64,000 bases of DNA from an uncultured Gammaproteobacteria bacterium (GCA_964553245.1 CAZKJM010000002.1:5878-69877), one strand, 5' to 3'; positions 4,085 through 21,146 are shown, counted from the first letter of the stretch. Notes: generated by a model not told the origin, from the letters alone. Program-made: numbers and translations.

Positions 4085-4097
4085 AAAACCAGCAATT

Positions 4098-4120
4098 TAG
4101 CTAATAGCCAATAGCTAATA
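4098..4120. repeat. Intergenic heptad array (TAGCNAA x3)
   Basis: tagctaa tagccaa tagctaa tag. Confidence 0.6.
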
Positions 4121-4214
4121 GTTTTTACCCCATGTACTATATATTAAAATGCCATAAGTTATTTCCTAATATGCTATTTTCTATGCGCCATAAGCTATAC
4201 GCTATTTTGCAAAT

Positions 4215-4595
4215 TTGACTTTTAAGATTAAAAATGGTAATTTCCGTAAATATATGTCAGGTAGATATGAACAAGAAAAAAGAAGAATAGAAGAAAGCGG
4301 AAGCCCGCTTGTTAAGCATTCCAGAAACCAACATAAAATAAAGTCGGGCATGGAGGGAGATATTAGAGTTTCTAGAACATTGTTTTTTAGCGATGATAAA
4401 GCATCGAGGGCAAGAGCAAGAAATGAATTAAGGTGTTTAATTACTGGTTTAATAATTTCACAAATGGAAAGATGTCTTAAGCATTTTACGGAAAGAGGAA
4501 GGGTAACACCAGAGGAGGCAGATTTTTTTAATAAACACAAAGGTGAAATTAGTGATTATGGAGATTTTCCGCGATTAAAACCAAGCTACGATTAA
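4215..4595 (+). CDS. Hypothetical small basic protein (126 aa) flanked on both sides by heptad-repeat intergenic arrays
   Basis: ORF only. Its GC content looks higher than its surroundings. There is an overlapping antisense ORF, so coding status is uncertain. Confidence 0.3.
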   Translation: MTFKIKNGNFRKYMSGRYEQEKRRIEESGSPLVKHSRNQHKIKSGMEGDIRVSRTLFFSDDKASRARARNELRCLITGLIISQMERCLKHFTERGRVTPEEADFFNKHKGEISDYGDFPRLKPSYD

Positions 4596-4699
4596 TATAG
4601 TATCAGCTTATAGTGCATAGCTTATGGGGAATGGTTAAGAATAGAATTTAGTTTTTTAGCTTAGCACATTGTTCCTATACGCTATTTGCTATATTGCCA

Positions 4700-5362
4700 T
4701 TATTGTGTTGTTCCTTCGGGGAAAGAAAAAGCTGCATTTACAGTTTTTCTAAGAACAGATTTTGATATGCCCTCCGCTGTTGTTTGTGCTTTTGGTTGGA
4801 ATCTAATTTTTGTTTCACCCTTAAAACCATAGACTTTGTTAAAAGTTAATGTTGCAATACTTCCGGTTCCGCTGATTCCTCTTTGTCCTAAGGCAATACC
4901 TACAGCATAAGTAATAGTTCCGTTTACAGGGTCAATTTTTTTAATTAATTCTGTCCATTCTTTATTTAAGTTTCCTAATTTTATATCCACGTTTGTTAAA
5001 GCCTTTGGATCATAAGTTAACTCAAATTGTACTGCGGTAATTTTATTATTGCCCGTTGTTACATTTGCATCGAGATTATATTCTTTTGCAAATGTAACTT
5101 CATTTGTTGTTTCGTATGGAGTATCTGCAAATCTGATTTCCGTTTGGGCATAGACTAGAGAATCCTTGGTAACTGAGGTTTGCTGTTTTTCTTCCTTTAC
5201 CGTAGACGAAGATACTGCTAAATAAACTAATCCGATTGTAGCTAGTACCAAAGCAATTATTAAAATTATTGTTTTTCCCGGCGGCAAATGCTGATTTAAT
5301 TTTTTCTGCACCGGTAAGGTGGTTTCCTGTGCATTTTTTGGTTGTTCTAAATTTTCTTCCAT
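4700..5362 (-). CDS. Membrane-anchored cohesin-domain protein with an N-terminal TM helix and a cohesin-like beta-sandwich
   Basis: TM helix TIILIIALVLATIGLVYLAV. ITAVQFELTYDPKAL...GTITYAVGIALGQRGISGTGSIATLTFNKV matches cohesin hallmarks, namely the F.F.YDP..L strand and the SGTG...I motif before the final strands. It sits adjacent to two dockerin-bearing genes. Confidence 0.65.
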   Translation of the reverse strand: MEENLEQPKNAQETTLPVQKKLNQHLPPGKTIILIIALVLATIGLVYLAVSSSTVKEEKQQTSVTKDSLVYAQTEIRFADTPYETTNEVTFAKEYNLDANVTTGNNKITAVQFELTYDPKALTNVDIKLGNLNKEWTELIKKIDPVNGTITYAVGIALGQRGISGTGSIATLTFNKVYGFKGETKIRFQPKAQTTAEGISKSVLRKTVNAAFSFPEGTTQ

Positions 5363-5423
5363 AGGGCAGTTATTTAATTATCAATTATCAATTATCACTT
5401 GTCAAATATTAATTTGTTTTATT

Positions 5424-7382
5424 TTATTCGCCTTGCTGGTTTGCCCAGTCGCGCATATATAAATTATAGTCGAATTCGTTTCTTGTACCGTTATCATCTA
5501 AATCTGCAATTATTTTAAATCTTTCATTGGAATTACATTTTGTAGCATCATAAGAATTAAATCCTTCTATGCAGCTTACTAAATCCGCATAGTCATTTAT
5601 GTCTAATTTGTTGTTTACATCCATATCTCCGGTAACTAATCTTACTATTGGTGTTTGATTGGTAGCTGATGTATTAACAGCCAGTATTCCCGGTATTCTT
5701 CGTTTTAAGTATCCTTCTGACCAAGTTCTTACAATATAGTTTCCGGATGTAAAACTTACTCCCAAGTCAACTGTTCCAACAAATTTTCCGTAATTTGCGC
5801 TTCCGCTTGCAGTTTGATAATCAGCATATCCTGTTTTTAATGTATTAAGCGGTTTATCATTTGTGTCGTAAAAATCAATATATATTTGCCTTGATGGTCT
5901 TGTTGGATTTAGAGTCGATCCGCATCCTTGTTGTCTTTGCGCTTCGGTGCAATTTATGTCATTTGGATTGGCATTGTCTCCGGTTGTTCCGATCCCATCT
6001 AATCCAAGTACAAGAGTTAATGTATTGTTAGAAGGTTTTGTTGTAGATGTGGTTGTGGTTATAGTACTTGTAGACGATGATGTTGTTGGAATTGTAGAAG
6101 ATGTTGCTCCCGTGGTTGTTGTCGTGGTTGTTATTTTTGTTGTTGTAGTTCTGCAGGATGATTTACAGCTTTCTTCGCTAAGATCTCCACAGACGCCATC
6201 AATTCTTCGGCAACTGTAATCACTTGTATAGCATGTCCAATATGGATCATGCAATCGTGGATAATCTTTGCATTGACATTGGTTATTTACGCATTCCTGA
6301 TCTGTCCTGCAGGCATTTATTTCGCAATCTACGTTTTCTCTATTGTTTTCTCTGCATTGTCTTCCACCTTCTTTTTGGGAATAGGTTACTGTTTTTGTTC
6401 CGGCTGTTGGTCCACAAAGTCCTGAATTTTTTGCTGTGCATTGAGTTTCTGTTACCTTATCTGTTGCATCGCAGTCGGGTATTGTTGTTGGGGTTGAACA
6501 ACTAGCTATTACTGATCCTGCTGTGCAAGTTGAGTCATAAGAATAACTTTTGTTTTCTAACTTTGTTTCGGGATCCATTCCCGTTCCGCACGCACCATTT
6601 ATGGGATCGTAAGTTACTCTACAATCTTTGTATGTGTCGCTACATCGTGAGCATTTATTATCCCCTGATGTTGGTTTGCAATAAGCCTCTACTTCTTCCG
6701 CTGTTTTTCCTTCGCAGGGTCCGGCAGGATAGTTTATACAGTCACCGCAAACAATCTGATTTTGCTCTGCATTACCTGGTATATTGTTTTTATCACAAAG
6801 TTCATTTTCAGCAACTGTCCAAGTTGTTCCACAGTATTTAGTTCCGTTACATTTATGGCACGAATTTATTCCCGTAGAGGTTTTAGGACATTGTGGTTCA
6901 CAATTATATTCTGCAAGAAGGGGCACAGATGTTCCATCGGGACATACATACATTGTAGCAGGACATTTAATATTTTCGCTTGTACTTGTTGGTTTGGTCT
7001 TAGAGCATTTTTTAGTTTCGGAGCCTTCGGTACATGTCCATTCCCACTTAGTTGATGTATCTTTTTCATTTCCTACAATACCTACAATGCAAGTAAATTC
7101 ATTGGTTGTCCCGCACTTGGCTGTTTTTACTTCGTTTATAATAGTTGTGGTTGTTGGAGCTGTACAACAAACCTTCCAATATTGACCAATAGAATCTCTT
7201 CCGGTAGTAATTGCACTACAAGTATATCCTTGAGATTTATAATTATTCCAAGCAATGCTAGCAGTTGTGTAATTGTGGTAAGTGATGCAATCGGCAAAAA
7301 CAGTTTTTGTAAATATTATTATTAATATTATTAAAAAAACTGAAGAAAATATAACAGAAGAAAAACGAATAAATTTATTCAT
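5424..7382 (-). CDS. Secreted Cys-rich multi-module protein with a poly-Thr linker and a C-terminal dockerin-like module
   Basis: Signal peptide FSSVIFSSVFLIILIIIFTKTVFA. Modules are shared with ORF1 and ORF 2579 (CPATMYVCPDGTSVPLLAEYNCEPQCP, CSRCSDTYKDC). The C-terminus has two EF-hand-like loops about 35 aa apart, GDMDVNNKLDINDYADLV and DLDDNGTRNEFDYNLYM, which is the dockerin duplicated Ca-binding segment pattern. Confidence 0.65.
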   Translation of the reverse strand: MNKFIRFSSVIFSSVFLIILIIIFTKTVFADCITYHNYTTASIAWNNYKSQGYTCSAITTGRDSIGQYWKVCCTAPTTTTIINEVKTAKCGTTNEFTCIVGIVGNEKDTSTKWEWTCTEGSETKKCSKTKPTSTSENIKCPATMYVCPDGTSVPLLAEYNCEPQCPKTSTGINSCHKCNGTKYCGTTWTVAENELCDKNNIPGNAEQNQIVCGDCINYPAGPCEGKTAEEVEAYCKPTSGDNKCSRCSDTYKDCRVTYDPINGACGTGMDPETKLENKSYSYDSTCTAGSVIASCSTPTTIPDCDATDKVTETQCTAKNSGLCGPTAGTKTVTYSQKEGGRQCRENNRENVDCEINACRTDQECVNNQCQCKDYPRLHDPYWTCYTSDYSCRRIDGVCGDLSEESCKSSCRTTTTKITTTTTTTGATSSTIPTTSSSTSTITTTTSTTKPSNNTLTLVLGLDGIGTTGDNANPNDINCTEAQRQQGCGSTLNPTRPSRQIYIDFYDTNDKPLNTLKTGYADYQTASGSANYGKFVGTVDLGVSFTSGNYIVRTWSEGYLKRRIPGILAVNTSATNQTPIVRLVTGDMDVNNKLDINDYADLVSCIEGFNSYDATKCNSNERFKIIADLDDNGTRNEFDYNLYMRDWANQQGE

Positions 7383-7444
7383 TATTTAAAATAATTTCTA
7401 TATGTTTAGATTACTAAATAGAAACAGGGGATGTCAAGAGAGAC

Positions 7445-7476
7445 AAATGGGAATTAGCGTTTAGCGTCTAGCAACT
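7445..7476. repeat. Intergenic heptad array (NNNTAGC x4)
   Basis: attagcg tttagcg tctagca actagcg. Confidence 0.65.
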
Positions 7477-7573
7477 AGCGTATGGTTAGTTTTAAATTTT
7501 TAAGCATTAAAAATTGATAATCAACTATTTATTAGCCCCTATTTGCCATAAGCTATATGCTGGTGGTTGCTAA

Positions 7574-8953
7574 TTATTCTCCTTGTCCGGTGGGGAGCTC
7601 TCTTATTAAAAGGTTGTAATCATATTCGTTTATTACGCTGTTGTCGTCTAAATCAGAAAGTTTTTGGTAATTTGTTCCGGATTTGCAGGTTTCGTTATTG
7701 TCTTTACTAAAGGTAGAGCAACTAACCAAAATATTGTAATCCCTTATATCCAAAAGATTATCTTCGTTAACGTTTCCGTTTATAAGCCTAGTTGTCGGAA
7801 CTGTGTTTTTTTGTCCGGATGTTATTACTTGGGTTTGAGAAGCAGTTTTTCTTAAGAACCCCGGAGATTTTACTTTTATTACATATGTTCCAGATGTTAT
7901 ATTTTCCAGTTCCGCTGAACCTTTGAATTTTCCTGTAGCTGAATCATAGGTTATTGTTGCTAATTTTTCGGAAACAGCAAAAGATCCTTGCTGGCTAATT
8001 ATTTCTATGTTTAGATTTCTGTCTTTTGTGTTTGGGTTTTGATTTGATCCGCAGCCTTCTTGTCTTTGGGTTTCTGTACAATTTTTATCTTCCGGATTCG
8101 GCGTGTCTCCTGATGTTCCGATTCCGTCAAGTCCGATTACAAATTCCAATATCGTTTTATTTGGGATAGTGGTGGTTGTAGAAGAAGACGCTGTGGTTGT
8201 TGTTGAACTTGCGGTAGTAGAAGTCGTGCTTTTAGTGGTTGTAGTTTTTGGGTGTGTTGTGGTGGTTGTTTTTGATTCGCATATTCCGGTTGATTCGTTA
8301 CAGGTTTGGCTTGAGGTACATTTATTTATACTGCAGGTTTCATAGACTCTTTCGTCGCTTTCTTTGCAATTGGTGGTTTCTTGAGCATTTGGGTCATTTG
8401 GGTCTTTATAGGCAGTGTACGAACATTGTTTCCTGCTGTTGTTTTTGCATTTTCCGTCTTCTGCCTGATCGGGATCGCATTCCGTACAATTTGTCGGTCT
8501 TGTATTACACTCGGGAAGAGTATTGCAAGAAGAGGTGTCTACTCCTTTTTCGGAGCAGTTTTTGGTAGCATATTGGCTGCTTCCGCTTGTTCCATCGCAA
8601 TTGCAATTTAATGTATATTTGGCATTCCAAGTATCTGTACATCCTTCTGTGCTTTCCCAATCAGCATTGCAATATATATATGTGTCGCTACAACGGCTGC
8701 ATTCTTTTTTTGTGCCAAAGTAATTGTTGCAGCAATGATATTTTTGAGGATTAGTGTTTTCAACCGGTTTACAAGTAGAGCCTTCTAGGATACAGCTTTC
8801 ATTGCAGTTTGAGCGATCATAATAGCTCCAACCGCATTGTTCAATAGAAGTAACTTTTGTTGTGGTTGTGGTAGCATTAATAACTTTTATAAATGCAGAG
8901 AGTCCAAATATTGAGAAAATAACAACAGTGAATAGTAATTTGAAAAATTTCAT
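7574..8953 (-). CDS. Secreted Cys-rich protein with a poly-Thr/Ser linker and a C-terminal dockerin-like module, paralog of 5424..7382
   Basis: The start was moved to the internal Met giving signal peptide MKFFKLLFTVVIFSIFGLSAFIKVINA; the ORF-track start at 9037 runs into a heptad-repeat array. The CSRCSDTYIYC module is present. The C-terminal domain is collinear with the paralog (VIGLDGIGTSGD...CTETQRQEGCGS...) and ends with NVNEDNLLDIRDYNILV ... DLDDNSVINEYDYNLLI. Confidence 0.6.
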   Translation of the reverse strand: MKFFKLLFTVVIFSIFGLSAFIKVINATTTTTKVTSIEQCGWSYYDRSNCNESCILEGSTCKPVENTNPQKYHCCNNYFGTKKECSRCSDTYIYCNADWESTEGCTDTWNAKYTLNCNCDGTSGSSQYATKNCSEKGVDTSSCNTLPECNTRPTNCTECDPDQAEDGKCKNNSRKQCSYTAYKDPNDPNAQETTNCKESDERVYETCSINKCTSSQTCNESTGICESKTTTTTHPKTTTTKSTTSTTASSTTTTASSSTTTTIPNKTILEFVIGLDGIGTSGDTPNPEDKNCTETQRQEGCGSNQNPNTKDRNLNIEIISQQGSFAVSEKLATITYDSATGKFKGSAELENITSGTYVIKVKSPGFLRKTASQTQVITSGQKNTVPTTRLINGNVNEDNLLDIRDYNILVSCSTFSKDNNETCKSGTNYQKLSDLDDNSVINEYDYNLLIRELPTGQGE

Positions 8954-9020
8954 AGCTATTTTGAGCATAGTAAAGACAAACAGAGAAGTCAATATGGCAT
9001 AAAGCATATAGTTGAAAAAC

Positions 9021-9055
9021 CATTTGCCATGTGCCATAAGCTAAGAAGCTAATGG
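9021..9055. repeat. Intergenic heptad array (CATNNGC-like x5)
   Basis: catttgc catgtgc cataagc taagaag ctaatgg. Confidence 0.6.
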
Positions 9056-9059
9056 CTTG

Positions 9060-9233
9060 TTTTTTTTACGTATACAATATATAATACTTCAATCACACAC
9101 ATTCGGAATTGTGTCCTAAGTATCCACATCCGAATGGAGGAGTAAGGACAATAAAGCCCGCCGAAACTTACCTTTCGGCTTTTTGGAACTATTCGTTCAC
9201 GCCTCAAGGGGCGTTAGCTGGCGGGTAAAACAT
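9060..9233 (+). promoter_or_regulatory. Structured 5' leader upstream of rpsB-tsf, a candidate S2 autoregulatory leader
   Basis: The non-coding stretch is GC-richer than surrounding intergenic DNA. It has an 8-bp inverted repeat cattcgga/tccgaatg (about 9110..9150) and long-range complementary gcccgcc/ggcgggt segments just before the ATG. Confidence 0.35.
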
Positions 9234-10112
9234 ATGAAAGAAATTACATTAGAAGAATTATTGGAAGCAGGTTGCCACTTTGGTCATCAGGTTACAAGAT
9301 CTAATCCTAAAGCCCGTGATTATGTTTACGAAGCAAGAGAGGGAATCCAGATTATTGATTTGGCAAAAACAAAAGAAGGATTGGATGAAGCACTTTCTTA
9401 TGTAAAAGAGGTAGCAAAACAAGGAAAAACAATGCTTGTTGTCGGTACCAAAAGACAAGCGCAGGCAATTGTAAAAGAAGAAGTAGAAAGAGCAAGAGCG
9501 GAATTAAAGAAAAATCTGCCGGCTGGCGGATCTGAGTACAAAGATGATATTTACTACATTACAACACGTTGGATTGGTGGAATTCTAACTAATTTTTCGG
9601 AAATCTCTAAAAACCTTAAAAAATTAAAAGATCTTACCAAGAAGCTTCAAAGTACAGAGGAAAAAAGAGAGTATACAAAAAAAGAAATCGGACTTTGGGA
9701 TAAAGAAAGACAAAGATTGGAGTCTTTTTACAGCGGAATAAAATCCATTGAAAGAAATCCCGATATATTATTTATAGTAGATACTCATTTGGAAGATCTT
9801 GCGGTAAGAGAGGGATTGAATATGTCTGTACCAATAGTTGGGATTACAGATACAAACGCAAACCCCGAAATTATTGATTATCCAATTCCTGCAAACGATG
9901 ATGCAACCGGTTCTATTAAGTTAATCGTAGGTTATATAGTGGATGCATGGGTAGAGGGAAAAAATAATTTAGAATCTAAAATTAAGAATTCAGAAATAAA
10001 GAAAAATAAAAAAGAAGTTAATAAAGAAGCAAATGCGCCAATTTCCAAAATTCAAAAAACAAAAAAAGAGACAAAGGAAGTAAAAAAGCCGGCAAAGAAG
10101 AAGGCAAAGTAA
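9234..10112 (+). CDS. rpsB: 30S ribosomal protein S2 with a Lys-rich C-terminal tail
   Basis: ITLEELLEAGCHFGHQVTRSNPKARDYVYEAREGIQIIDL... is the canonical S2 N-terminus. The start was set to ATG 9234 (MKEITLEEL), not the upstream TTG used by the ORF track. Confidence 0.9.
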   Translation: MKEITLEELLEAGCHFGHQVTRSNPKARDYVYEAREGIQIIDLAKTKEGLDEALSYVKEVAKQGKTMLVVGTKRQAQAIVKEEVERARAELKKNLPAGGSEYKDDIYYITTRWIGGILTNFSEISKNLKKLKDLTKKLQSTEEKREYTKKEIGLWDKERQRLESFYSGIKSIERNPDILFIVDTHLEDLAVREGLNMSVPIVGITDTNANPEIIDYPIPANDDATGSIKLIVGYIVDAWVEGKNNLESKIKNSEIKKNKKEVNKEANAPISKIQKTKKETKEVKKPAKKKAK

Positions 10113-10115
10113 GAT

Positions 10116-10565
10116 ATGGTTGACATTAATCTTTTAAAAAAACTTAGAGAAGAAACGCAGGTTTCCATTGCGGATTGCAGAACTGCTTTGGAAGAAACAA
10201 AAAATGATTACAAAAAAGCCGGTGAATGGTTAAAAAAACATGGAATAGAAAAAGCCTCTAAGAAGCAAGACAGGGAAACAGCGCAGGGCTTAATTGAATG
10301 TTATGTTCACTTAAACGGAAAAGTCGGTGTAATGGTGGAAATTTTGTGCGAGACAGATTTTGTTGCAAAAACAGATGATTTTAAAAAATTAGCCCATGAA
10401 ATTGCAATGCAAATTGCAGCGATGAACCCAAAAGACGTAAATGCATTGTTAAAACAAGAATATATACGAGATGGTTCGACAACGATGGAAAATTTATTAA
10501 AAGAAACAATTTCCAAATTAGGCGAAAACATTGTAATTAAAAGATTTATTAGGTATAGTATTTAG
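10116..10565 (+). CDS. tsf: Elongation factor Ts, short form (149 aa)
   Basis: LLKKLREETQVSIADCRTALEETKNDYKKAGEWLKKHG is the UBA-like N-domain, plus ILCETDFVAKTDDF. It lies immediately downstream of rpsB. Confidence 0.85.
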   Translation: MVDINLLKKLREETQVSIADCRTALEETKNDYKKAGEWLKKHGIEKASKKQDRETAQGLIECYVHLNGKVGVMVEILCETDFVAKTDDFKKLAHEIAMQIAAMNPKDVNALLKQEYIRDGSTTMENLLKETISKLGENIVIKRFIRYSI

Positions 10566-10566
10566 T

Positions 10567-11127
10567 ATGGACGAACTTATAGCTTCAACTAAGCAAAAAA
10601 TGTTGAAGGTTATAGATGTTTTAAAAACAGATCTTTCCACTGTTAGAACCGGCCGAGCAGCCCCATCATTAGTAGAAAATATTTTTATAGAAGCATATGG
10701 AGGAACTCAAAAATTTAGAGTTGTTGAGCTGGCACACGTAAGCTCGTCTGATCCTCAAACACTTTTAGTTACACCTTTTGACCCGTCAATAATAGGGGAA
10801 ATAAGAAAGGGAATTCAGGAAGCAAATGTTGGTTTAAATCCGGTAATTGATGGGCAAGTGGTTAGAATTTCTATTCCTCCGCTTTCGCAAGAGAGAAGAG
10901 AACAGCTTATTCAACTTGTTCATCAAAAACTTGAAGGAGGAAAGATTCAAATAAGGCAAATGAGACACGATGCAATTAATGACGTTAAAAAACTAAAAGA
11001 TTCCGAAAATCTTTCCGAGGATAATACCTTGCATTTAGAAAAAGAAATTCAAAAATTAACAGATGAATTTACATTGGAAATAGAAAATTTGGGAAAGAAA
11101 AAAGAAGAAGAACTGCTAGCAATATAG
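10567..11127 (+). CDS. frr: Ribosome recycling factor
   Basis: VIDVLKTDLSTVRTGRAAPSLVENIFIEAYGGTQKFRVVELAHVSSSDPQTLLVTPFDPS, and the length matches RRF (186 aa). There is no pyrH between tsf and frr. Confidence 0.85.
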   Translation: MDELIASTKQKMLKVIDVLKTDLSTVRTGRAAPSLVENIFIEAYGGTQKFRVVELAHVSSSDPQTLLVTPFDPSIIGEIRKGIQEANVGLNPVIDGQVVRISIPPLSQERREQLIQLVHQKLEGGKIQIRQMRHDAINDVKKLKDSENLSEDNTLHLEKEIQKLTDEFTLEIENLGKKKEEELLAI

Positions 11128-11142
11128 CTCATGGTTTATAGG

Positions 11143-11170
11143 AAATAGCCAATAGCATATAGATAATAGG
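11143..11170. repeat. Intergenic heptad array (NAATAGC x4) between frr and the four-helix-bundle gene
   Basis: aaatagc caatagc atataga taatagg. Confidence 0.6.
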
Positions 11171-11177
11171 AAAAGAA

Positions 11178-11537: not shown

Positions 11538-11549
11538 TAAAAATTATTT

Positions 11550-11584
11550 CCTATACGCTATTTGCCATATGCTAATATGCTAGT
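11550..11584. repeat. Intergenic heptad array (GCNATNN x5) between the four-helix-bundle gene and rseP
   Basis: cctatac gctattt gccatat gctaata tgctagt. Confidence 0.6.
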
Positions 11585-13677: not shown

Positions 13678-13770
13678 AAGTATATTTTAATAAATAGTAA
13701 CAGCTTTGTCAACTATAGGATAATATTTCTGTATTTATATTTTAAAAATCAAATGTTATACTAACTGAAT

Positions 13771-14226: not shown

Positions 14227-14241
14227 TGGTATACTAAAATT

Positions 14242-15456
14242 ATGAGATACTCAAAACTTTTTGGCAAAACAAAAAAAGAAGCTCCGAAGGACGAAGTTTC
14301 CACAAATGCAAAGTTTTTAATGCGCGGTGGTTTTATAGATAAATTAATGTCAGGTTCGTTTACTCTTTTGCCTCTTGGTTATAGAGTTAAAGAAAAGATC
14401 GAGCAGATTGTTCGAGAGGAGATAAATAAAACAGACGCATCTGAACTTTTGATGCCGCTTTTGCACCCAAAGACTATTTGGAATGAGACAGGAAGGTGGG
14501 ATAAGGCAAAAGAAGTAATGTACCAGTTTAAAAAGGGAGACAAGGAATACGCGCTTTCTTTTACGCACGAAGAAATAGTTTTGGATTTAGCAAGAAAATA
14601 TGTTTCCAGTTATAAGGATTTACCGATTAAAGTTTATCATTTTTCCACAAAATTCAGGGATGAGCCAAGGGCAAAATCGGGAATTTTAAGAGGAAGAGAA
14701 TTTATAATGAAAGACCTTTATAGCCTTCATGAGACTTCAAGTGATTTGGATAAGTATTATTTTGAGGTAGCAGAGGCATACAAAAAAGTATTTAAGAGAA
14801 TGAATTTGGATGTAAAAATTACAGAAGCCCCGGGCGGAGTATTTACAGATAATGTTACCCACGAATTTCAGGTAATTTGTGAAACAGGTGAGGACACGGT
14901 TTATTATTGTGACAGATGTGAATTTTCGCAAAATAAAGAAATTACAAAATTAAAAGAAGAAGACAGATGTCCTAATTGTGAACAAGGAAGGATAAAAATC
15001 GGAAGATCAATTGAGGTTGGAAATATTTTTAGATTTGGAACATCTTACAGCGAAAAAATGGGAGTATGTTATATAGGAAAGAATGGTCAAAAACAATATG
15101 TCCATTTTGGAAGCTATGGAATAGGTATAACAAGGTTAATCGGAGCTGTGGTTGAGCTTTTTAATGATAAGAAGGGGATAATCTGGCCAAAAGAAATCGC
15201 TCCATACAAAGTGCATTTAATCGGACTTAATAAAAAAGCAGATGAGGCTTATCAAAAATTATTAGACCAAGAAATTGAAGTTCTATATGACGATAGGGAT
15301 GTTTCTGCCGGCGAAAAATTTGCTGACGCCGATTTGATAGGAATTCCAGTGAGGTTAGTCATTAGTGAAAAAACAAACGGAAAAATTGAATATAAGGAAA
15401 GGGCAAAGGAAGTAACAGAATTATTGGATCTAGAAGAAGTTGTTAAAAGAGTTTAA
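14242..15456 (+). CDS. proS: Prolyl-tRNA synthetase, compact bacterial-type without the editing insertion
   Basis: The N-terminus aligns to bacterial ProRS (K.EAP.D.EV.S...LMRGGFI.KL.SG.FT.LPLGYRV..KIEQIVREE...A.E.LMP.L.P...W.ETGRW). It also has class II motifs and a C-terminal anticodon-binding region. Confidence 0.8.
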   Translation: MRYSKLFGKTKKEAPKDEVSTNAKFLMRGGFIDKLMSGSFTLLPLGYRVKEKIEQIVREEINKTDASELLMPLLHPKTIWNETGRWDKAKEVMYQFKKGDKEYALSFTHEEIVLDLARKYVSSYKDLPIKVYHFSTKFRDEPRAKSGILRGREFIMKDLYSLHETSSDLDKYYFEVAEAYKKVFKRMNLDVKITEAPGGVFTDNVTHEFQVICETGEDTVYYCDRCEFSQNKEITKLKEEDRCPNCEQGRIKIGRSIEVGNIFRFGTSYSEKMGVCYIGKNGQKQYVHFGSYGIGITRLIGAVVELFNDKKGIIWPKEIAPYKVHLIGLNKKADEAYQKLLDQEIEVLYDDRDVSAGEKFADADLIGIPVRLVISEKTNGKIEYKERAKEVTELLDLEEVVKRV

Positions 15457-15763
15457 CGTTAAAAATCATTATCCACACATAGGCATAGCCAAATAAGAAT
15501 AAAATCATTAAAAGTATCAGAATAAGTGGTGAAATTCCCTTCTTTTTTCTTACAAATTCCGATGTCGGTTTTGGTATAAGGGTTGGGGGAGTAGCTTGAG
15601 CTTTGACTGGCTGTGATTGTTGAGTCGCATGTGGGGCAGGTTGTTGTGGTTGGTTTTCCGCTTTTTGTGGCTCAGCCGTTTGCTTTGGTGTAATAACGGT
15701 TCCCATTACTCGATCGTAAGCTTCTTTTAATTTAGGGTCTAGTTGAGCAGGGTTTTTATCCAT
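15443..15763 (-). CDS. Hypothetical small membrane protein with a Pro/Gln-rich N-terminal region and a C-terminal TM helix
   Basis: ORF with TM segment ILILLMILFLFGYAYVWIMIF. Low-complexity PQQPAPHATQQSQP. Confidence 0.35.
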   Translation of the reverse strand: MDKNPAQLDPKLKEAYDRVMGTVITPKQTAEPQKAENQPQQPAPHATQQSQPVKAQATPPTLIPKPTSEFVRKKKGISPLILILLMILFLFGYAYVWIMIFNVKLF

Positions 15764-15802
15764 ATCTTTATGTTAATTTTATAGTGAATTATTTTAAAAG
15801 AT

Positions 15803-16741
15803 TTGTCAAGTATACCTGACTTAGGGTATACTCTAATTTACGAAAATATGAAAATTATTGTTACGCATACATCGCCTGATTTGGATGCAATTACGTCTTG
15901 TTGGCTTATAAAAAAATTTTTACCGGGATGGCAGGATGCAATTGTAAAATATGTACTAGCGGGAAACAGGATTCAGGAATCAAAAAATACAAACGTTAAT
16001 CCTATTGAAGTAATTGGAAAAGATGAGGTAATCCATACAGATACAGGTCTTGGGTTTTTTGATCACCATCAAATTAACGATTCCAATATTTGTGCATCGA
16101 GTTTGGTTTGGGAATATCTCAAAAAACAAGAAGTAATAAGCGGAGAAGGAACAGAAGATAAAAAAGAGGCGTTGGACAGGCTTATTAAGATCGTTACTGA
16201 AATCGATAACTTTAAAGAGGTTTTTTGGCCTGATCCTACTGCGGATCATTACGATTTTTCCCTAATAAGCATAATAGACGGTTTAAAAATGGAAAAGCCG
16301 GGGCAGGACGAATATTATTTAAGTTTTATTTCAGATTGCCTTGATGCAATTTTGCATGAATTCGAAAATAGGATTTGGGCAGAGAAAGAGATAAAAGAAA
16401 AAGGTTATGAGTTTGAAACTAGATTTGGTAAAGCTTTGGGTATAGAAACAATTAACGATACAACAATAAAACTTGGACAAAAAATGGGATACGCAATGGT
16501 TATAAGAAAAGATCCAAGAAAGGGATATGTAAGAATAAAGGCAAGACCGAATAAATATCAAAAAACAGATGAAATAGATTTGACATTGGCTTATGAGAAA
16601 TTAAAAAAAATCGATCCTGAGGCTACATGGTTTTTGCATATATCAAAAAAAATGTTACTAAACGGAACACCAAAAAATCCTAAAATGAAGCCAACAAAGT
16701 TAAGTTTAAATGATATAATAGAAACGCTGCGTAGCATATAG
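15803..16741 (+). CDS. DHH-family phosphoesterase (NrnA-like)
   Basis: IVTHTSPDLDAITSCWL (DHH motif I), HTDTGLGFFDHHQ (DHH motif) and a DHHA1-like C-terminal region. Confidence 0.7.
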   Translation: MSSIPDLGYTLIYENMKIIVTHTSPDLDAITSCWLIKKFLPGWQDAIVKYVLAGNRIQESKNTNVNPIEVIGKDEVIHTDTGLGFFDHHQINDSNICASSLVWEYLKKQEVISGEGTEDKKEALDRLIKIVTEIDNFKEVFWPDPTADHYDFSLISIIDGLKMEKPGQDEYYLSFISDCLDAILHEFENRIWAEKEIKEKGYEFETRFGKALGIETINDTTIKLGQKMGYAMVIRKDPRKGYVRIKARPNKYQKTDEIDLTLAYEKLKKIDPEATWFLHISKKMLLNGTPKNPKMKPTKLSLNDIIETLRSI

Positions 16742-16809
16742 CGTAAAGCTTATAGCAAATAGTTATAATCATTATTAACTATAACCAATAAGCTATTTGC
16801 TATTTACCT
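16726..16809. repeat. Intergenic degenerate heptanucleotide tandem array (AGCNNNN/NNATAGC, about 12 units)
   Basis: agcatat agcgtaa agcttat agcaaat agttata atcatta ttaacta taaccaa taagcta tttgcta tttacct. The outer units form an inverted repeat (agcaaatag/ctatttgct). Confidence 0.7.
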
Positions 16810-16813
16810 AATT

Positions 16814-17140
16814 ATGGATTGTGTTTTTTGCAAAATCAGGGATAAAATTATCCCAAAAGAATTTATATACGAAGATGATGAAATAATGGTTTTTCCGGAT
16901 ATTCATCCTATAAAACCTGTTCATCTTTTAATAGTTCCCAAAAAACATATCCCAGAGATTATTAGCGTAGAAGACAGTAAGATTTTTGGAAAGCTTTTTG
17001 AAGCCGTTAAAAAAATGGTTAAGGAAAAAGAGTTGGAAAACAAAGGTTACAGAATAGTAATAAACGGTGGCGGAGCACAATTAATAAATCATTTGCATCT
17101 TCATTTGGTTGGACCAATAAGCAAAGATGCGAAAATGTAA
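16814..17140 (+). CDS. HIT-family (histidine triad) protein
   Basis: CVFCKI....P...IYEDDEIMVFPDIHP.KPVHLLIVPKKHI and the C-terminal HLHLHLVG histidine triad. Confidence 0.85.
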   Translation: MDCVFCKIRDKIIPKEFIYEDDEIMVFPDIHPIKPVHLLIVPKKHIPEIISVEDSKIFGKLFEAVKKMVKEKELENKGYRIVINGGGAQLINHLHLHLVGPISKDAKM

Positions 17141-17154
17141 GGAGGTGTTTTATT

Positions 17155-17337
17155 ATGGTAGTAGTAAAAAAAATGCCAGGAGACAGCGATGACTCCTTAA
17201 TTAAAAAATTTTCTAGAAAAGTAATGTCTGAGGGAATTCTTCAGGAGGCAAAAAGAAGAGAGTTTCATCTTAAACCCTCATTGGCAAAAAAAGCAAAACA
17301 GGAGGAGGCAAGAAGAGCTAAGAAAATGTGGGGCTAA
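17155..17337 (+). CDS. rpsU: 30S ribosomal protein S21
   Basis: 60 aa, VKKMPGDSDDSLIKKFSRKVMSEGILQEAKRREFHLKPSLAKKAK matches S21. SD-like aggaggtg lies upstream. Confidence 0.85.
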   Translation: MVVVKKMPGDSDDSLIKKFSRKVMSEGILQEAKRREFHLKPSLAKKAKQEEARRAKKMWG

Positions 17338-17340
17338 TCT

Positions 17341-17730
17341 ATGGACAATAAGATAAATGTTCCTATTTTTGTTGAAAGCAGATATAAAATTAATAGAAAG
17401 CGCATTAAAAAAGCGGTCGTTGATTTATTAAGTAAACAAGAGGTTACAGGGGAAATAGAAGTTTCTATTGCAGTAGTCGGAGATAGAAAAATGCGCGAGC
17501 TTTCCAAAAAATATAAAAATGAAGACAAAACCAGGAGTATTTTATCTTTTTCTCAAACGGAAGGAGAATTAATTGAAAGTCCAAGAAATGTTTTAAGGCT
17601 TGGGGATATTGTTCTTTCTTTTCCTCAAATAATTAATGATGCAGCAAAGGAAGAAAAATTAGTTGATGATAAAGTGGATGAATTAGTAGAGCATGGTCTT
17701 TTACACTTGCTTGGAATACACCATGATTAA
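17341..17730 (+). CDS. ybeY: rRNA maturation RNase YbeY (short form ending right after the His motif)
   Basis: C-terminal HGLLHLLGIHHD zinc-binding H...H.....H motif. Adjacent to rpsU, as is common. Confidence 0.7.
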   Translation: MDNKINVPIFVESRYKINRKRIKKAVVDLLSKQEVTGEIEVSIAVVGDRKMRELSKKYKNEDKTRSILSFSQTEGELIESPRNVLRLGDIVLSFPQIINDAAKEEKLVDDKVDELVEHGLLHLLGIHHD

Positions 17731-17832
17731 AAAATCCGAAGCACGAATATCGAAAATCGAAACAATAATAAAAATTAAAATGACAAAAATTCAAAACGTT
17801 TAGGATTTCGAATTTTAAGCTTTAGCAGTTCT

Positions 17833-19245
17833 ATGGTTTTTTATAGAAAATACAGACCTCAAAAAATTGAAGATTTAGATAGCGCTTATGTTCGTGAAAC
17901 TTTAAAATCAGTTTTCGAAGACAAGGATTTTCCGCACGCATTTTTATTTACAGGACCAAAAGGACTTGGTAAAACATCAACAGCAAGAATTATTGCTAAG
18001 GTAATCAATTGCGAAAAAATAAATGACTATTCTGCAATAAAAATAAAGGGGAAAGAAGCAAGTGTAAAACTAGAATCAGCAAAAAAATCCATAGAGCCGT
18101 GTAATAAGTGCGATCAATGTGCATCGATTACAAACGGTTCCAACATAGACATTTTAGAAATTGATGGGGCATCAAATAGAGGAATAGACGAGATAAGAGA
18201 TTTAAAAGAAAAAATAAAACTTTCTCCTGCCAAGGCACTTAAAAAAGTTTACATAATTGACGAGGTTCATATGCTTACAACAGAAGCGTTTAATGCGCTT
18301 TTAAAAACTTTAGAAGAGCCACCTAGTCATGCGGTTTTTATTCTTTGCACAACTGAACCTCATAAAGTACCCGAAACTATACTCTCTCGTTGTTTTAGAA
18401 TTCTTTTTAAAAGAGCCACCAAAGAAGAGTTGTTAAGATCTTTTAAACGCATTGTTTTTTCAGAAAAAATTAATATAGAAGATGAAGCGCTAGAGTTAAT
18501 AGCTGGTCTTTCCGATGGAAGCTTTAGGGATGGTACCAAAATACTTGAAGAAATTTCCGTTATTTCCAAAGGAAAAAAGATTACAAAAGAACTTTTGGAA
18601 GAAAAATACAAAGTTTTAAGCACAAAAAAATATATAGAAGAAATATTAAAGTCTTTGGAAGAAAAAGATGCAAAAAAAGGACTTTTAATTATCGGGAAAA
18701 TTGTAAAAGAAGGGCTAGATGTAAAATATTTTATAGAGCAAATGATCAATAGCTTGCATGAAGAATTATTGTTAAAAGTGGGAGTTTTAAATAATAATTC
18801 CAAAATAAAGCTTTCTATAGAAGATATTTCAAAGTTAATGAAATTAATGATAAAAGCAAATATGGACTTAAGATATTCACCAATCCCACAATTGCCATTA
18901 GAAATTGCTTTAATTGAATGGTCAATAAAAGATGAGGAGAAAAAAGAGATTAAAGAAAAAGTTTATAAAGATATTAAAAAAAATGAAACTATTTTGGAAA
19001 CACAAAAAACAACAGATTTTTGGCAAAGCTTAATAGATGGGGTAAAGCAGCATAACCACTCTATAGCAGGGGTTTTAAGGGGTTGCAATTTAGCAAGTGT
19101 TGATGATAATAAAATAGTTATAGAAACAAGTTTTAAATTTCATAAAGAAAAATTAGACGAACCAAAAATAAGAGAAATAATAGAAAAGACAACGGAAGAA
19201 ATCGGAAATAAGAGATTAGATTTATCCGTTAATATTAAAAAATAA
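17833..19245 (+). CDS. dnaX: DNA polymerase III subunit gamma/tau
   Basis: YRKYRPQKIEDL......FPHAFLFTGPKGLGKTSTARIIAK (Walker A), CNKCDQCASI zinc module, IIDEVHMLT (Walker B), SRCF sensor. Confidence 0.9.
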   Translation: MVFYRKYRPQKIEDLDSAYVRETLKSVFEDKDFPHAFLFTGPKGLGKTSTARIIAKVINCEKINDYSAIKIKGKEASVKLESAKKSIEPCNKCDQCASITNGSNIDILEIDGASNRGIDEIRDLKEKIKLSPAKALKKVYIIDEVHMLTTEAFNALLKTLEEPPSHAVFILCTTEPHKVPETILSRCFRILFKRATKEELLRSFKRIVFSEKINIEDEALELIAGLSDGSFRDGTKILEEISVISKGKKITKELLEEKYKVLSTKKYIEEILKSLEEKDAKKGLLIIGKIVKEGLDVKYFIEQMINSLHEELLLKVGVLNNNSKIKLSIEDISKLMKLMIKANMDLRYSPIPQLPLEIALIEWSIKDEEKKEIKEKVYKDIKKNETILETQKTTDFWQSLIDGVKQHNHSIAGVLRGCNLASVDDNKIVIETSFKFHKEKLDEPKIREIIEKTTEEIGNKRLDLSVNIKK

Positions 19246-19259
19246 GGGGGTGATTTTTT

Positions 19260-19541
19260 ATGTTTAATCCATTTGGACAATTGGGTGATCTTAAAAAAAT
19301 GAGAGATCAGGCAATGCAAATTCAAAAAGAATTGGAAAAAGAAGAAATTAATGTGGAAAAACACGGTGTAGAAATAGTAATTTCCGGGGATCAAAAAATA
19401 AGAGAAATTAAAACAAACGGAAAAAGTGATAACGATATTAAAGAAGCAGTGAATGAAGCGGTAAAAAAATCTCAGGAAATTGCAGCAAAAAAACTTGCAT
19501 CTATGAGTGGAGGATTGGGAGGGTTATTGGGAGGAAGATAA
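19260..19541 (+). CDS. ybaB: Nucleoid-associated protein YbaB/EbfC
   Basis: 93 aa, MFNPFGQLGDLKKMRDQAMQIQKELEKEEI...GGLGGLLGG. Canonical dnaX-ybaB-recR neighbourhood. Confidence 0.85.
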   Translation: MFNPFGQLGDLKKMRDQAMQIQKELEKEEINVEKHGVEIVISGDQKIREIKTNGKSDNDIKEAVNEAVKKSQEIAAKKLASMSGGLGGLLGGR

Positions 19542-19545
19542 ATTT

Positions 19546-20445
19546 ATGAAAATTGTTTCCGGAAGTTCTAATAAGCCCTTGGCGGAAAAAATTGCGAAAA
19601 ACCTAAACACGTCCTTATCGGGTGTTGAGATATTTGTTTTTCCGGATAAAGAAAGAAGGATAAGGATTTTAGATAAGGTTTTGGATTCAAATTGCGCTGT
19701 TGTTCAGGCTGCAGACACGCCCGCAGACCAAAAATATATGGAGCTTTTCTTTTTAGTTGACGGATTAAAAAGAAGCGGTGCAGAATCTGTAACGGCAGTA
19801 ATTCCATATCTTGGTTATCAAAGACAAGATCATATTTTTAGGGAAGGTGAAGCAGTTTCTTTACAGGTAATTGTCGAAACGTTGGAAGCAGTTGGGGTAG
19901 ATAAAATAATTACAGTTGACTTGCATACTATAAAAATTCCGGAATTGTTTAAAATTCCGATAATTCACCTATCGGCTCTTTCTATTTTTGCAGAAAAGAT
20001 AAAAGAAATCGAAAATAATCTTAGGAAAATAGTTTTAGTTTCTCCAGATATGGGAGGAATAAGAAGGATAAAAATACTTTCGGAAATGCTTGGTAATTGT
20101 TCTTATGCCACAATAAATAAGGATAGGGATTTATCAACGGGAACAGTTTCTGCTAAAGAAATAGAAGGCGAAGTTGACGGAAAAATTGCAATAATTGTTG
20201 ACGATATGATTTCTACAGGAAACACAATTTTGACAGCAGCAAAACTTCTTAAAGAAAAAGGCGCAGAAAAGATTTACGTGTTCGCAACACACGGAATATT
20301 TTCCGATGATGCAGGAAAAAATCTGCAAAATAATTTAATAGGAAAAGTTTTTGTTACAGATAGCGTTTTTATTTCGAAAGAAAAATGTTTTGAAAAACTT
20401 GAGGTTTTAACAATTTCAACATTAATTGCAAATAACTTAAAATGA
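19546..20445 (+). CDS. prs: Ribose-phosphate pyrophosphokinase (PRPP synthetase)
   Basis: MKIVSGSSNKPLAEKIAKNL N-terminus, PRPP-binding loop VDDMISTGNT. The start was set to ATG 19546 behind the GGGAGGAAG SD. The ORF-track start overlaps ybaB. Confidence 0.8.
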   Translation: MKIVSGSSNKPLAEKIAKNLNTSLSGVEIFVFPDKERRIRILDKVLDSNCAVVQAADTPADQKYMELFFLVDGLKRSGAESVTAVIPYLGYQRQDHIFREGEAVSLQVIVETLEAVGVDKIITVDLHTIKIPELFKIPIIHLSALSIFAEKIKEIENNLRKIVLVSPDMGGIRRIKILSEMLGNCSYATINKDRDLSTGTVSAKEIEGEVDGKIAIIVDDMISTGNTILTAAKLLKEKGAEKIYVFATHGIFSDDAGKNLQNNLIGKVFVTDSVFISKEKCFEKLEVLTISTLIANNLK

Positions 20446-21056
20446 GAATTCCAAAAGCGATACAGAATTTAATTGAGTCTTTCGAGAAACTTCCCGGAAT
20501 CGGACCAAAAACAGCACAAAGATTAACTTTTTATCTTTTACATGTTCCCCAAGGTGAATTGGATAAATTTTCAAGTTCAATTGAAAATTTAAAAAAACAA
20601 ACGGTTTTTTGTTCCGAATGTTTTATGATTGGAGAAAATAATCCTTGCAGTATTTGTTCGGATTCAACTAGAGATGATTCTTTATTATGTGTAGTTGAGC
20701 AACCATTAGACGTTTTAGCTCTTGAAAAAAATGGAAAATTTAACGGAAAATATCATGTGCTTCACGGAAAAATTGATCCTTTGAATAATATTGGACCGGA
20801 CGAAATCTATATAAAACAACTTTTTCACAGGTTAAAACTTAATCCGCAAATTAAAGAAATAATATTAGCAACCAATCCGACAATGGAAGGAGAAGCAACG
20901 GCAATGTACATTAACAAAAATCTCAACTCTCACTTATCGAATCGAGCAAAGCCTAAAGTTACAAGAATTGGGAGAGGGCTGCCGGTTGGAGCAGATTTAG
21001 AGTATGCGGATGAAATAACTTTGCAAAGGGCAATGGAAGGAAGAAGCGAATACTAA
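20442..21056 (+). CDS. recR: Recombination protein RecR
   Basis: LIESFEKLPGIGPKTAQRLTFYLL (HhH), C4 zinc finger CSECFMIGENNPCSICSD, Toprim and IILATNPTMEGEATAMYI. Confidence 0.9.
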   Translation: MRIPKAIQNLIESFEKLPGIGPKTAQRLTFYLLHVPQGELDKFSSSIENLKKQTVFCSECFMIGENNPCSICSDSTRDDSLLCVVEQPLDVLALEKNGKFNGKYHVLHGKIDPLNNIGPDEIYIKQLFHRLKLNPQIKEIILATNPTMEGEATAMYINKNLNSHLSNRAKPKVTRIGRGLPVGADLEYADEITLQRAMEGRSEY

Positions 21057-21133
21057 GATAGCAAATAGCATATGGCTGATAGGTAGTAGCACATAGATAG
21101 AAATAGAAACTATTTGCTATATGCAATAAATCT
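21057..21133. repeat. Intergenic degenerate heptanucleotide tandem array (about 11 units)
   Basis: gatagca aatagca tatggct gataggt agtagca catagat agaaata gaaacta tttgcta tatgcaa. Flanked by the inverted agcaaatag/ctatttgct. Confidence 0.7.
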
Positions 21134-21146
21134 AAAAAACTAATAT

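Follow-up and report, generated by a model that had tools for sequence, protein, structure and literature searches.

Paired heptanucleotide arrays around a PF05635 gene of an uncultured gammaproteobacterium and around genes of the same family in many phyla

Short tandem rows of a degenerate 7-nt unit recur at gene boundaries in a stretch of 64,000 nucleotides from an uncultured Gammaproteobacteria bacterium (GCA_964553245.1, CAZKJM010000002.1:5878-69877; the whole stretch is called the window here). An earlier note on this DNA had listed ten such sites, treated them as free-standing tandem arrays, and proposed that they could be iteron-like, a platform for protein binding, or a lineage-specific punctuation or terminator element. 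The locus raises the question of what element these arrays belong to. We found that they are the paired left and right arms of inverted repeats, and that one pair encloses a four-helix-bundle gene of the family PF05635. This gene is no incidental neighbour; it is the characteristic cargo, as PF05635 genes across phyla carry such arms. That the arrays are the arms of a family of cassettes resembling intervening sequences (IVSs) seems well supported; for the mode of action of the arms we favour, more tentatively, a composite of pairing and stepwise reading.

Paired arrays in the window and at PF05635 genes elsewhere

When the ten sites were inspected, degenerate 7-nt units with a TAGC/GCTA core were present at all of them (10/10), with 3–8 units per arm and not up to 12 as the earlier note had it. 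A scan of both strands for (TAGCNNN)x3, with a cut-off of at least 10 of 12 core matches, gave 30 matches at period 7 and 0–2 at the other periods from 4 to 11. Markov shuffles of the window (n = 100) gave a mean of 2.5 such matches and a maximum of 6. The intergenic self-match, calculated over 2.1 kb of intergenic DNA in 1..21700, was 0.378 at lag 7 compared with 0.304 in shuffles (z 7.3); lag 14 was also raised (z 4.4), and the remaining lags from 3 to 13 were all within z ±2.2. Period 7 stands clearly above a shuffled background, and so passes the comparison that the earlier note had asked for. Tandem Repeats Finder picked up just the cleanest three TAGC arrays, and the signal is therefore one of degenerate units. 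The matches were confined to 4098–21126, no TAGC array being found when 21.2–64 kb was scanned. The GC content is 33%. Rfam at the gathering threshold reported one tRNA only in the window, with no RNA family at the arrays and no rRNA.

The arrays pair up: a left arm (ATAGCNN)n on the plus strand is followed by a right arm (NNGCTAT)n, and seven imperfect inverted repeats result. Six pairs are gene-less, with loops of roughly 10–50 nt (hairpins A to F), and the seventh encloses the gene 11178..11537. The earlier list of sites was incomplete, since it lacked the arms 4163..4211 and 8985..9012 as well as two heptamer arrays of another family (5376..5414 and 11808..11842). The unit consensus over 72 units is ATRGCWW, or A(.71) T(.79) R(A.67, G.28) G(.82) C(.60) W W, each unit having a conserved core of 4–5 nt and 2–3 free positions. 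The seven copies have this consensus in common, not their overall sequence. Across the seven pairs, the RNA duplexes computed between the arms ranged from −16 to −25 kcal/mol, with z scores between −2.2 and −5.0 relative to shuffled right arms, and the alignment of the two cassette arms scored 36 against a null median of 16. The position of the arrays at gene boundaries was borne out, the arms adjoining or covering stops or starts of frr, rseP, recR and the DHH and HIT genes. So was their placing on both sides of the four-helix-bundle gene, around the open reading frame (ORF) 4215..4595, which is bracketed by hairpins A and B, and between the Cys-rich paralogues, which are separated by hairpin C (7447..7568). 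The inverted repeat agcaaatag/ctatttgct, which was said to bound several arrays, bounds two hairpins (16754/16793 and 21060/21110) and no others; one single copy lies at 4682.

The enclosed gene stands in the order rpsB-tsf-frr-[gene]-rseP, with frr at 10567..11127. The relatives of its protein in the PDB are 2GSC (E 7e-14) and 2RLD, with five chains each, and its score against the Avd equivalog was 24.2 bits, the cut-off being 80. Homologues of the protein carry the labels Patescibacteria or Levybacteria. Three relatives, in which the protein is 91%, 74% and 72% identical, still have the gene between frr and rseP with TAGC arrays on both sides. The arrays are thus present in relatives also, and the absence from relatives that the earlier note had named as a refutation does not hold. 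Individual units have turned over among these cassettes. Orthologous cassettes gain and lose units, and their arms are not alignable in register for base-pair covariation. Other PF05635 copies on the contigs of the relatives have inverted heptamer arrays with the units AAATTGA, ATCCTAA/TTAGGAT and CTAGAAN/NTTCTAG.

Relatives without the gene between frr and rseP were picked via Frr (65–71% identical). The two genes are 10 nt apart in L178, with no array and no gene; the spacer is 87 nt in L180, with no clear array, and 163 nt in L179, where a gene-less array is built from a different unit (TAATNTC). Between frr and rseP of L181 there is a different gene. Since the gene-less relative L178 is also without an array, the gene and its arrays are one inserted cassette. 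Empty sites exist, and the cassette is an insertion. No target-site duplication was visible at the frr-rseP junctions when compared with the empty site. In the carriers (the window, L001 and L005) frr ends with GCA ATA TAG or an equivalent and rseP begins with ATG CTA, whereas the non-carriers (L178–L181) have a TAA stop for frr and ATG TTA, ATG TTT or ATG AAT for rseP. The TAG and ATG CTA of the carriers complete TAGC/GCTA units; thus the array pattern extends into the adjoining coding ends via synonymous choices. It may be noted that L005 has three PF05635 genes within 15 kb, and that a PDDEXK_3 gene lies there between tsf and frr (8996..9382) without heptamer arrays. PDDEXK_3, another gene known from IVSs, was considered as an alternative cargo and rejected because this copy has no arrays.

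We then looked at 80 loci around relatives of the protein, on contigs taken from one genome per species (Patescibacteria, Verrucomicrobiota, Planctomycetota, Bacteroidota, WOR-3, Pseudomonadota, Clostridia and others). The loci other than the window were selected for carrying a PF05635 gene, and gene calls there are the ORF calls of this analysis. In the 80 nt flanking PF05635 genes, self-match was 0.416 upstream and 0.381 downstream at lag 7, and 0.377 and 0.336 at lag 14, lags 2–13 being otherwise at 0.25–0.30. An array was defined by at least 14/21 lag-7 matches in a 28-nt window not more than 100 nt from the gene. By this definition 57% of 93 PF05635 genes on genome contigs had an array upstream, 60% downstream, 46% on both sides and 71% on either, compared with 4.5% of random 100-nt segments. 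Similar results were obtained with 69 PF05635 genes on metagenome contigs (71% with an array, random 4.3%; lag-7 self-match 0.394/0.357). Taken together, 71% of 162 PF05635 genes from at least seven phyla had an array within 100 nt, compared with about 4.4% of random segments, an enrichment of about 16-fold. Annotated plasmids of cultured cyanobacteria and of Riemerella served as a further replicate, in which 11/13 PF05635 genes had an array. The units were (AGTCAGG)n/(CCTGACT)n in Nostoc punctiforme, (AGGGTGT)n/(ACACCCT)n in Calothrix, (GGGAAAA)n/(TTTTCCC)n in Geminocystis and (GGTTCAA)n/(TTGAACC)n in Riemerella; heptamers also flank PF05635 genes on Aulosira and Anabaena plasmids. Hence the same paired architecture is found around PF05635 genes in many phyla.

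The cassettes occur in unrelated spacers, among cas genes, in rRNA insertions and in ribosomal operons, and on the plasmids some of the genes have cas6 and cas4, or cmr2 and cmr3, as their two neighbours. The family has 31,843 clusters at 50% identity (E ≤ 0.001). A link to phages or to defence systems was rejected, as 50,697 phage records gave one weak match and a PADLOC defence-system search gave none. Among intergenic regions not beside a PF05635 gene, 7.7% reached the strict level (0.8) at lag 7, against about 1% at lags 5, 6, 8 and 9, so that heptamer arrays without the gene are frequent in these genomes as well. In the literature we found no paper tying PF05635 genes in general to flanking inverted heptamer arrays, though most subscription journals lay outside the coverage and an earlier description is possible. 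The link across phyla between PF05635 genes and heptamer arrays appears to be the new part.

The two arms of a cassette are related by inversion. The unit profile of the upstream arm matched the reverse complement of the downstream arm at 0.551, compared with 0.380 in direct orientation and 0.412 for the arms of other genes, and the relation was inverted rather than direct in 80% of genes. For 87/162 genes the arms aligned over about 33 nt with 82% complementarity. The median number of units per array was 4. The 5′ arm has an excess of G and the 3′ arm one of C (G minus C being +0.19 and −0.17 per nt, respectively). Three planctomycetotal cassettes (L046, L048 and L086) have the reverse polarity, the C-rich arm being upstream and the G-rich one downstream. 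About 2.2 kb from the cassettes of L046 and L048, on the opposite strand, there is a conserved 23S rRNA motif, so the gene would adjoin the end of an rRNA operon.

Similarity between units grew with protein identity, from 0.47 below 25% to 0.71 above 60% (Spearman 0.45; p-values over gene pairs ignore phylogenetic non-independence). Paralogues of the same genome, about 29% identical, had unrelated units (similarity 0.474). It follows that the unit goes with the lineage of the gene rather than with the host. Gene-less arrays resembled the PF05635 arrays of the same contig (0.622) more than those of GC-matched other contigs (0.559; p 6e-4). When inverted array pairs were counted, in a census biased by the choice of loci for a PF05635 gene, nearly all pairs 200–900 nt apart enclosed a PF05635 ORF (62 found automatically and 5 by eye), the rare exceptions enclosing cas6, cas4, rplJ or a protein like nucleotidyltransferase-substrate-binding proteins; 23 short hairpins were also counted.

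The PF05635 genes were co-oriented with the upstream neighbour in 120/137 cases (88%) and with the downstream neighbour in 100/125 (80%), at median gaps of 54 and 40 nt, respectively. Given these small gaps and the co-orientation, the spacers are taken up by the arrays, and a promoter or terminator belonging to the cassette itself would have little space. Words like the Shine–Dalgarno (SD) sequence were enriched in upstream arms only mildly (0.63 vs 0.19 per array), and SD mimicry by these arms was rejected on that account. The idea that units of the GTTGAGA type represent the integron core site GTTRRRY was rejected as a general account, because units vary widely (ATRGCWW, AATCCGA, GGAAAGC and others).

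Features and other repeats of the window

The arms of the seven inverted repeats and two heptamer arrays of another family are collected in Table 1.

Table 1. Heptamer arrays of the window and the gene enclosed by one pair of arms. Duplex, computed energy of the RNA duplex of the two arms.
Feature	Position	Strand	Units	Remarks
Hairpin A, left arm	4090..4124		CAGCAAT TTAGCTA ATAGCCA ATAGCTA ATAGTTT	18/25 core matches; begins 6 nt past stop of gene 2579..4084
Hairpin A, right arm	4163..4211		(NNGCTAT)n, 7 units	26/35 core matches; duplex −21.8 kcal/mol, z −4.9; stops 4 nt short of ORF 4215..4595
Hairpin B, left arm	4603..4630			whole-hairpin fold −31.3 kcal/mol, z −3.3
Hairpin B, right arm	4674..4701			duplex −21.0 kcal/mol, z −4.1; abuts stop of cohesin-domain gene 4700..5362 (minus strand)
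Hairpin C, left arm	7447..7481		TTAGCGT TTAGCGT CTAGCAA CTAGCGT	between two Cys-rich paralogues
Hairpin C, right arm	7527..7568			duplex −20.1 kcal/mol, z −2.2; kept in L001, with unit turnover
Hairpin D, left arm	8985..9012			divergent spacer upstream of rpsB
Hairpin D, right arm	9023..9057			duplex −16.9 kcal/mol, z −3.4
Cassette, left arm	11117..11172	+	TAGCAAT ATAGCTC ATGGTTT ATAGGAA ATAGCCA ATAGCAT ATAGATA ATAGGAA	8 units; covers final codons and TAG stop of frr, extends to ribosome-binding region of four-helix-bundle gene
Four-helix-bundle gene	11178..11537	+		PF05635 23S_rRNA_IVP, E 2e-32; TIGR02436, E 3.3e-30
Cassette, right arm	11546..11587	+	(NNGCTAT)n	duplex with left arm −25.2 kcal/mol, z −3.9; last unit holds probable rseP ATG (11577) and CTA codon
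Hairpin E, left arm	16724..16765			overlaps final codons and stop of DHH-family gene 15803..16741
Hairpin E, right arm	16781..16808			duplex −16.3 kcal/mol, z −4.3; stops 5 nt before ATG of HIT gene 16814..17140
Hairpin F, left arm	21057..21091			22/25 core matches; immediately 3′ of recR stop (21056)
Hairpin F, right arm	21106..21126			duplex −19.2 kcal/mol, z −5.0; gene 21147..21683 lies 20 nt downstream
Second-family array	5376..5414	−	(GATAATT)3-5	reads (AATTATC)n on plus strand; no inverted partner; 14 nt upstream of start of cohesin-domain gene 4700..5362
Perfect array in rseP	11808..11842	+	(AAAATTC)5	within coding sequence, hypervariable linker

The ORF between hairpins A and B is an orphan: among 5.8 billion proteins it has 2 homologues only. 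At the position that this ORF has in the window, upstream of the cohesin-domain gene, the relative L008 has a PF05635 gene. The ORF was considered as a divergent four-helix-bundle gene and rejected, having no Pfam or NCBIfam match even at E 10. Two contigs covering about 1..4300 of the window (L174 and L175), from independent short-read assemblies of the same organism, stop in the region of the first heptamer hairpin, and this suggests that assembly is hindered by the repeats.

The (GATAATT)n array overlaps the best promoter-like match of the region, TTGACA-17-GATAAT (11/12, 5377..5405). Sigma-70 promoters at the arrays were rejected as an explanation, since this strong site belongs to the (GATAATT)n family. 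The consensus scan for promoters and terminators gave nothing at the TAGC hairpins except a weak promoter-like match (9/12) at the right arm of the cassette. In rseP, relatives have heptamer arrays at one site, between KLYGEDEAGxG and RAFFARPxWQ, with another unit in each lineage: (GAAATTC)4 in L001 (10147..10181), (CCATCAG)3 in L005 (~10650), (AGCTCAA)2-3 in L178 (~3796), (AAGTCAA)3 in L179 (~3963) and (AAAGTTN)3 in L181 (~4588), alongside (AAAATTC)5 in the window. They also occur in genomes without the frr-rseP cassette. Selection at the protein level cannot be the source of a 7-nt period within an ORF.

A 63-bp unit is repeated 2.4 times at 13770..13921 with 95% identity. Each copy consists of the first ~26 nt of the gene for a tRNA-binding domain (13897..14226) followed by a GC-rich hairpin, ccgccttcgctaaaaagcttcggcgg; the repeat looks like a small hairpin insertion that duplicated the start of the gene. 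Upstream of rpsB a leader (~9095..9182) is conserved in the window, L001, L005 and L008, with cacacattcgga...ccgaatgg... and a terminator-like hairpin at 9160..9179. This leader, which probably serves autoregulation by S2, was not reported by Rfam at the gathering threshold.

Possible modes of action of the arms

We would give an even chance to a reading in which one type of element is present in seven copies with the arrays as its arms, one copy being a full PF05635 cassette and six gene-less, and in which the arms pair, are processed and are read in 7-nt steps. To judge from the co-orientation and the gap sizes, the cassette would be co-transcribed with its host operon. Its arms may then pair into a duplex of about 28–35 nt, for which pairing energy and complementarity are computed and a function is suggested by the RNase III precedent: in the 23S rRNA IVS of Coxiella, which has an S23p ORF, RNase III cuts at a 28-bp terminal stem (PMC4990558). 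By analogy with gene-bearing 23S rRNA IVSs, a double-strand RNase would cut out or insulate the insert. The unit number may shift by slippage. More tentatively, a factor that reads the arms in 7-nt steps could set the register, and the most economical candidate would be the homopentameric protein of the cassette itself, with one unit per subunit. A reader working in 7-nt steps is what the constant register of 7 nt, the presence of about 4–5 units per arm and the specificity of the unit to a lineage point to. A pentameric reader would also account for the fact that each gene lineage has its own unit, and that gene-less hairpins have the unit of the local gene.

Several observations weigh against this reading. 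The folds of the whole hairpins were modest (z −0.8 to −3.3), being weaker than the arm duplexes because the cores pair and the spacers often do not. Mismatches between arms showed no excess of G·U (135 G·U-compatible vs 137 A·C-type, with 365 transversions), and so give no detectable sign that RNA pairing has been selected on the sense strand. The mirror order of units was slightly above permuted order (0.707 vs 0.671; 34/42 genes, p 1e-4), and most of the complementarity comes from the shared unit consensus. On the plasmid pPg_01 of Pseudanabaena galeata (L173, 44777..48121), heptamer arrays are present in every spacer of the row cas6/four-helix-bundle/cas4. The four-helix-bundle gene has (AAAGCTA)15 upstream and (AAAGCCA)10 downstream; these two arrays are long and perfect and run in direct orientation, so that no stem is possible. 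Pairing does not explain why the period is 7 in all phyla, and a reader of single strands cannot recognise a unit as well as its complement. Heptamer arrays also occur with no PF05635 gene nearby, in rseP and upstream of start codons. To our knowledge, nucleic-acid binding by PF05635 proteins is known only in diversity-generating retroelements. The missing wobble signature and the direct-orientation exception count against pairing as the selected property, and keep alive the models of binding sites and of a mobile element.

A wider proposal, which we regard as possible and somewhat unlikely, is that PF05635/TIGR02436 proteins are ring-shaped readers of 7-nt arrays, that their lineages travel with cognate arrays, and that scattered gene-less arrays are their sites or offspring. 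If true, the heptamers of the Coxiella IVS and the heptanucleotide repeats of cyanobacteria would be among such sites or offspring, perhaps together with the TAACTGA arrays, and we would be dealing with a protein-repeat system that crosses phyla and follows a logic like that of repetitive extragenic palindromic (REP) sequences and their REP-associated tyrosine transposases (RAYTs), with another protein and a fixed 7-nt register.

Protein binding, which the earlier note had also named, is still a live explanation of the arrays. In its pure form, which we consider unlikely, each arm is an array of 4–5 binding sites on double-stranded DNA, pairing is irrelevant, and the cassette pentamer or a host factor regulates the gene and its neighbours. 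Inverted orientation would be natural on double-stranded DNA, and the transversion-rich mismatches without wobble bias are as expected if only the consensus is constrained. The core with free positions in each unit, the lineage-specific units, arrays that abut start codons, and the retention of arrays in the direct-orientation cassette of Pseudanabaena all fit. What such binding leaves unaccounted for is that about 80% of cassettes have inverted and not direct arms, that mirror order is significantly above permuted, and that arm length is about that of the Coxiella stem cut by RNase III; moreover, a 7-bp spacing would put successive sites on different faces of B-DNA, and no DNA-binding fold is known for PF05635.

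Quite unlikely, in our estimate, is that the arms are the ends of a mobile element acting at the DNA level (of the REP/REPIN-RAYT type, or of the type formed by a miniature inverted-repeat transposable element (MITE) and its parent), read by a recombinase, a transposase or the four-helix-bundle protein, with the gene-less hairpins as non-autonomous copies. A gene flanked by inverted copies of a repeat that is also dispersed as gene-less doublets, the empty sites, the variety of spacers occupied, the assembly breaks at arrays and a 47-nt gap that the closest relative, L001, has where the right arm of hairpin B aligns would all be in keeping with mobility. Yet the cassette stays at one locus across 57–91% protein identity, without visible target-site duplication, and same-genome paralogues, divergent both in protein and in unit, do not look recently copied. 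PF05635 is not known to contain a nuclease or recombinase motif, and the family is almost absent from phages.

It is slightly more doubtful that the arrays are neutral by-products, namely heptanucleotide microsatellites produced by replication slippage in slack DNA and gathering around tolerated insertions. Slippage predicts a spread of unit lengths, and only lag 7 and its multiple 14 are enriched. Both arms of one cassette have one unit, inverted; arrays persist at 57–91% protein identity, recode the adjoining stop and start codons, and are about 16-fold enriched beside PF05635 genes. On the other side stand the differing unit number among Coxiella strains, long perfect arrays such as (AAAGCTA)15, and the arrays in the hypervariable rseP linker with another unit per lineage. 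One paper also describes heptameric repeats as being in excess in bacteria (PMC4692102).

We consider it very improbable that S1, cold-shock or CsrA-like proteins read the arrays on the mRNA as elements of a leader or of translation initiation, as was proposed for the TAACTGA arrays of Beggiatoaceae. Those arrays lie mostly a few nt upstream of start codons (PMC4679880). In the window the right arms end at or near start codons without an SD sequence (rseP 11577 and HIT 16814), and (GATAATT)n stands close before a start. The left arms, however, follow stops and do not precede starts, each hairpin shows a unit together with its complement, and SD-like words are enriched only mildly. As neighbouring cassettes in one genome differ in unit, a single host factor cannot read all of them.

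Lineage-specific terminators or punctuation marks are hardly credible, for although the arrays lie at gene boundaries and can fold into hairpins, their stems are AT-rich and mismatched with a T-run only after the stem at 9055, a consensus scan of 4000..21300 gave 23 terminator-like sites with none at a TAGC hairpin, the canonical terminator at 32675..32705 looks quite different, hairpins lie within conserved operons (frr-rseP) where termination would be harmful, and only the unit sequence is specific to a lineage, the phenomenon itself being found across phyla.

The paired architecture links three things that have lacked an explanation: the PF05635 family, which is very large and without known function outside retroelements; the intervening sequences of rRNA; and the heptanucleotide repeats of cyanobacteria, Beggiatoaceae and Coxiella. 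The link yields a hypothesis that is directly testable in cultured organisms, through binding of the pentamer to arrays and cutting of the arms by RNase III. In practice, the cassettes are found within essential operons and among cas genes, the arrays coincide with breaks in assemblies, and they are open to confusion with regulatory sites or CRISPR-like repeats.

Comparison with known systems

Three known kinds of element differ plainly from the arrays. Iterons, one of the suggestions of the earlier note, are direct repeats of 17–22 bp at one origin, whereas the present unit has 7 nt and occurs as inverted pairs at seven gene boundaries, with no Rep initiator gene among the annotated neighbouring genes. 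Unlike intrinsic terminators, no TAGC hairpin has a GC-rich stem with a T-run, and the hairpins lie inside conserved operons. Unlike a MITE, the copies are not nearly identical and share the unit consensus only, with no target-site duplication at frr-rseP.

TRAP forms a ring that reads 11 evenly spaced (G/U)AG triplets in RNA. As a functional analogy it offers a homo-oligomeric ring and a row of short, even, degenerate repeats beside a start codon. There is no homology; array binding by the present protein is only putative, and here reverse-complement repeats lie also on the far side of the gene. Avd of diversity-generating retroelements binds nucleic acid. It has a homologous four-helix-bundle fold and is a pentamer, like the proteins considered here, but the protein of the window falls far below the Avd cut-off (24.2 bits vs 80) and its gene has frr and rseP as neighbours. 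No reverse transcriptase was present among the annotated neighbours in the window or in the gene tables of the relatives; template and variable repeats were not searched for.

The short tandemly repeated repetitive (STRR) sequences of cyanobacteria are heptanucleotide tandem repeats with unit sequences of their own. TAACTGA arrays are described upstream of start codons in Beggiatoaceae, cyanobacteria and Bacteroidetes, with no associated gene (PMC4679880). Both resemble the arrays of the window in their tandem 7-nt units and in being intergenic, often beside start codons and sometimes within genes. They differ in unit (ATRGCWW in the window) and in host lineage, the genome of the window being of Patescibacteria type, and they were described as direct arrays without a gene or an inverted partner. 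We found no paper that links either of them to PF05635.

The REP/REPIN sequences reportedly are dispersed palindromes, with the RAYT gene located between inverted copies of the repeat. Like them, the present repeats are dispersed, intergenic, imperfect palindromes, one gene is flanked by inverted repeat copies, and a genome has several repeat families, each matched to its own gene copy. Unlike them, the gene encodes a PF05635 four-helix bundle and not an HUH Y1 transposase (PF01797), and the repeat is a 7-nt-periodic array and not a unique palindrome of 20–40 nt, with no recent copying evident.

PF05635 genes have been noted before, with their function left open, between cas genes (PMC3936711) and in rRNA insertions of candidate-phyla bacteria (10.1101/2024.02.27.582315). 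The closest known system is the 23S rRNA IVS with an S23p/PF05635 ORF, as in Coxiella burnetii and Leptospira (PMC4990558). It differs from the cassette of the window in its place, helix 25/45 of 23S rRNA and not a site between the protein genes frr and rseP, and in its stem, which is near-perfect, while the arms in the window are degenerate and heptamer-periodic throughout. Cutting by RNase III was shown for the IVS; the present arms are known from sequence, and the wobble test gave no signal at the RNA level. The likenesses are nevertheless extensive. In both, a PF05635/S23p gene lies in the loop (E 2e-32 in the window), and the insert is bordered by complementary arms, the Coxiella stem of 28 bp corresponding to about 4 heptamers and the median here being 4 units. 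Both inserts lie inside an essential unit that is transcribed (presumably so here), and versions without the ORF exist. Tandem heptamers are found directly upstream of the ORF in both: in Coxiella, 2–3 tandem GACAGAT heptamers lie between the ribosome-binding site and the start codon of S23p, and their number differs among strains (PMC4990558). The Coxiella IVS is thus a single-case description of the pattern seen here.

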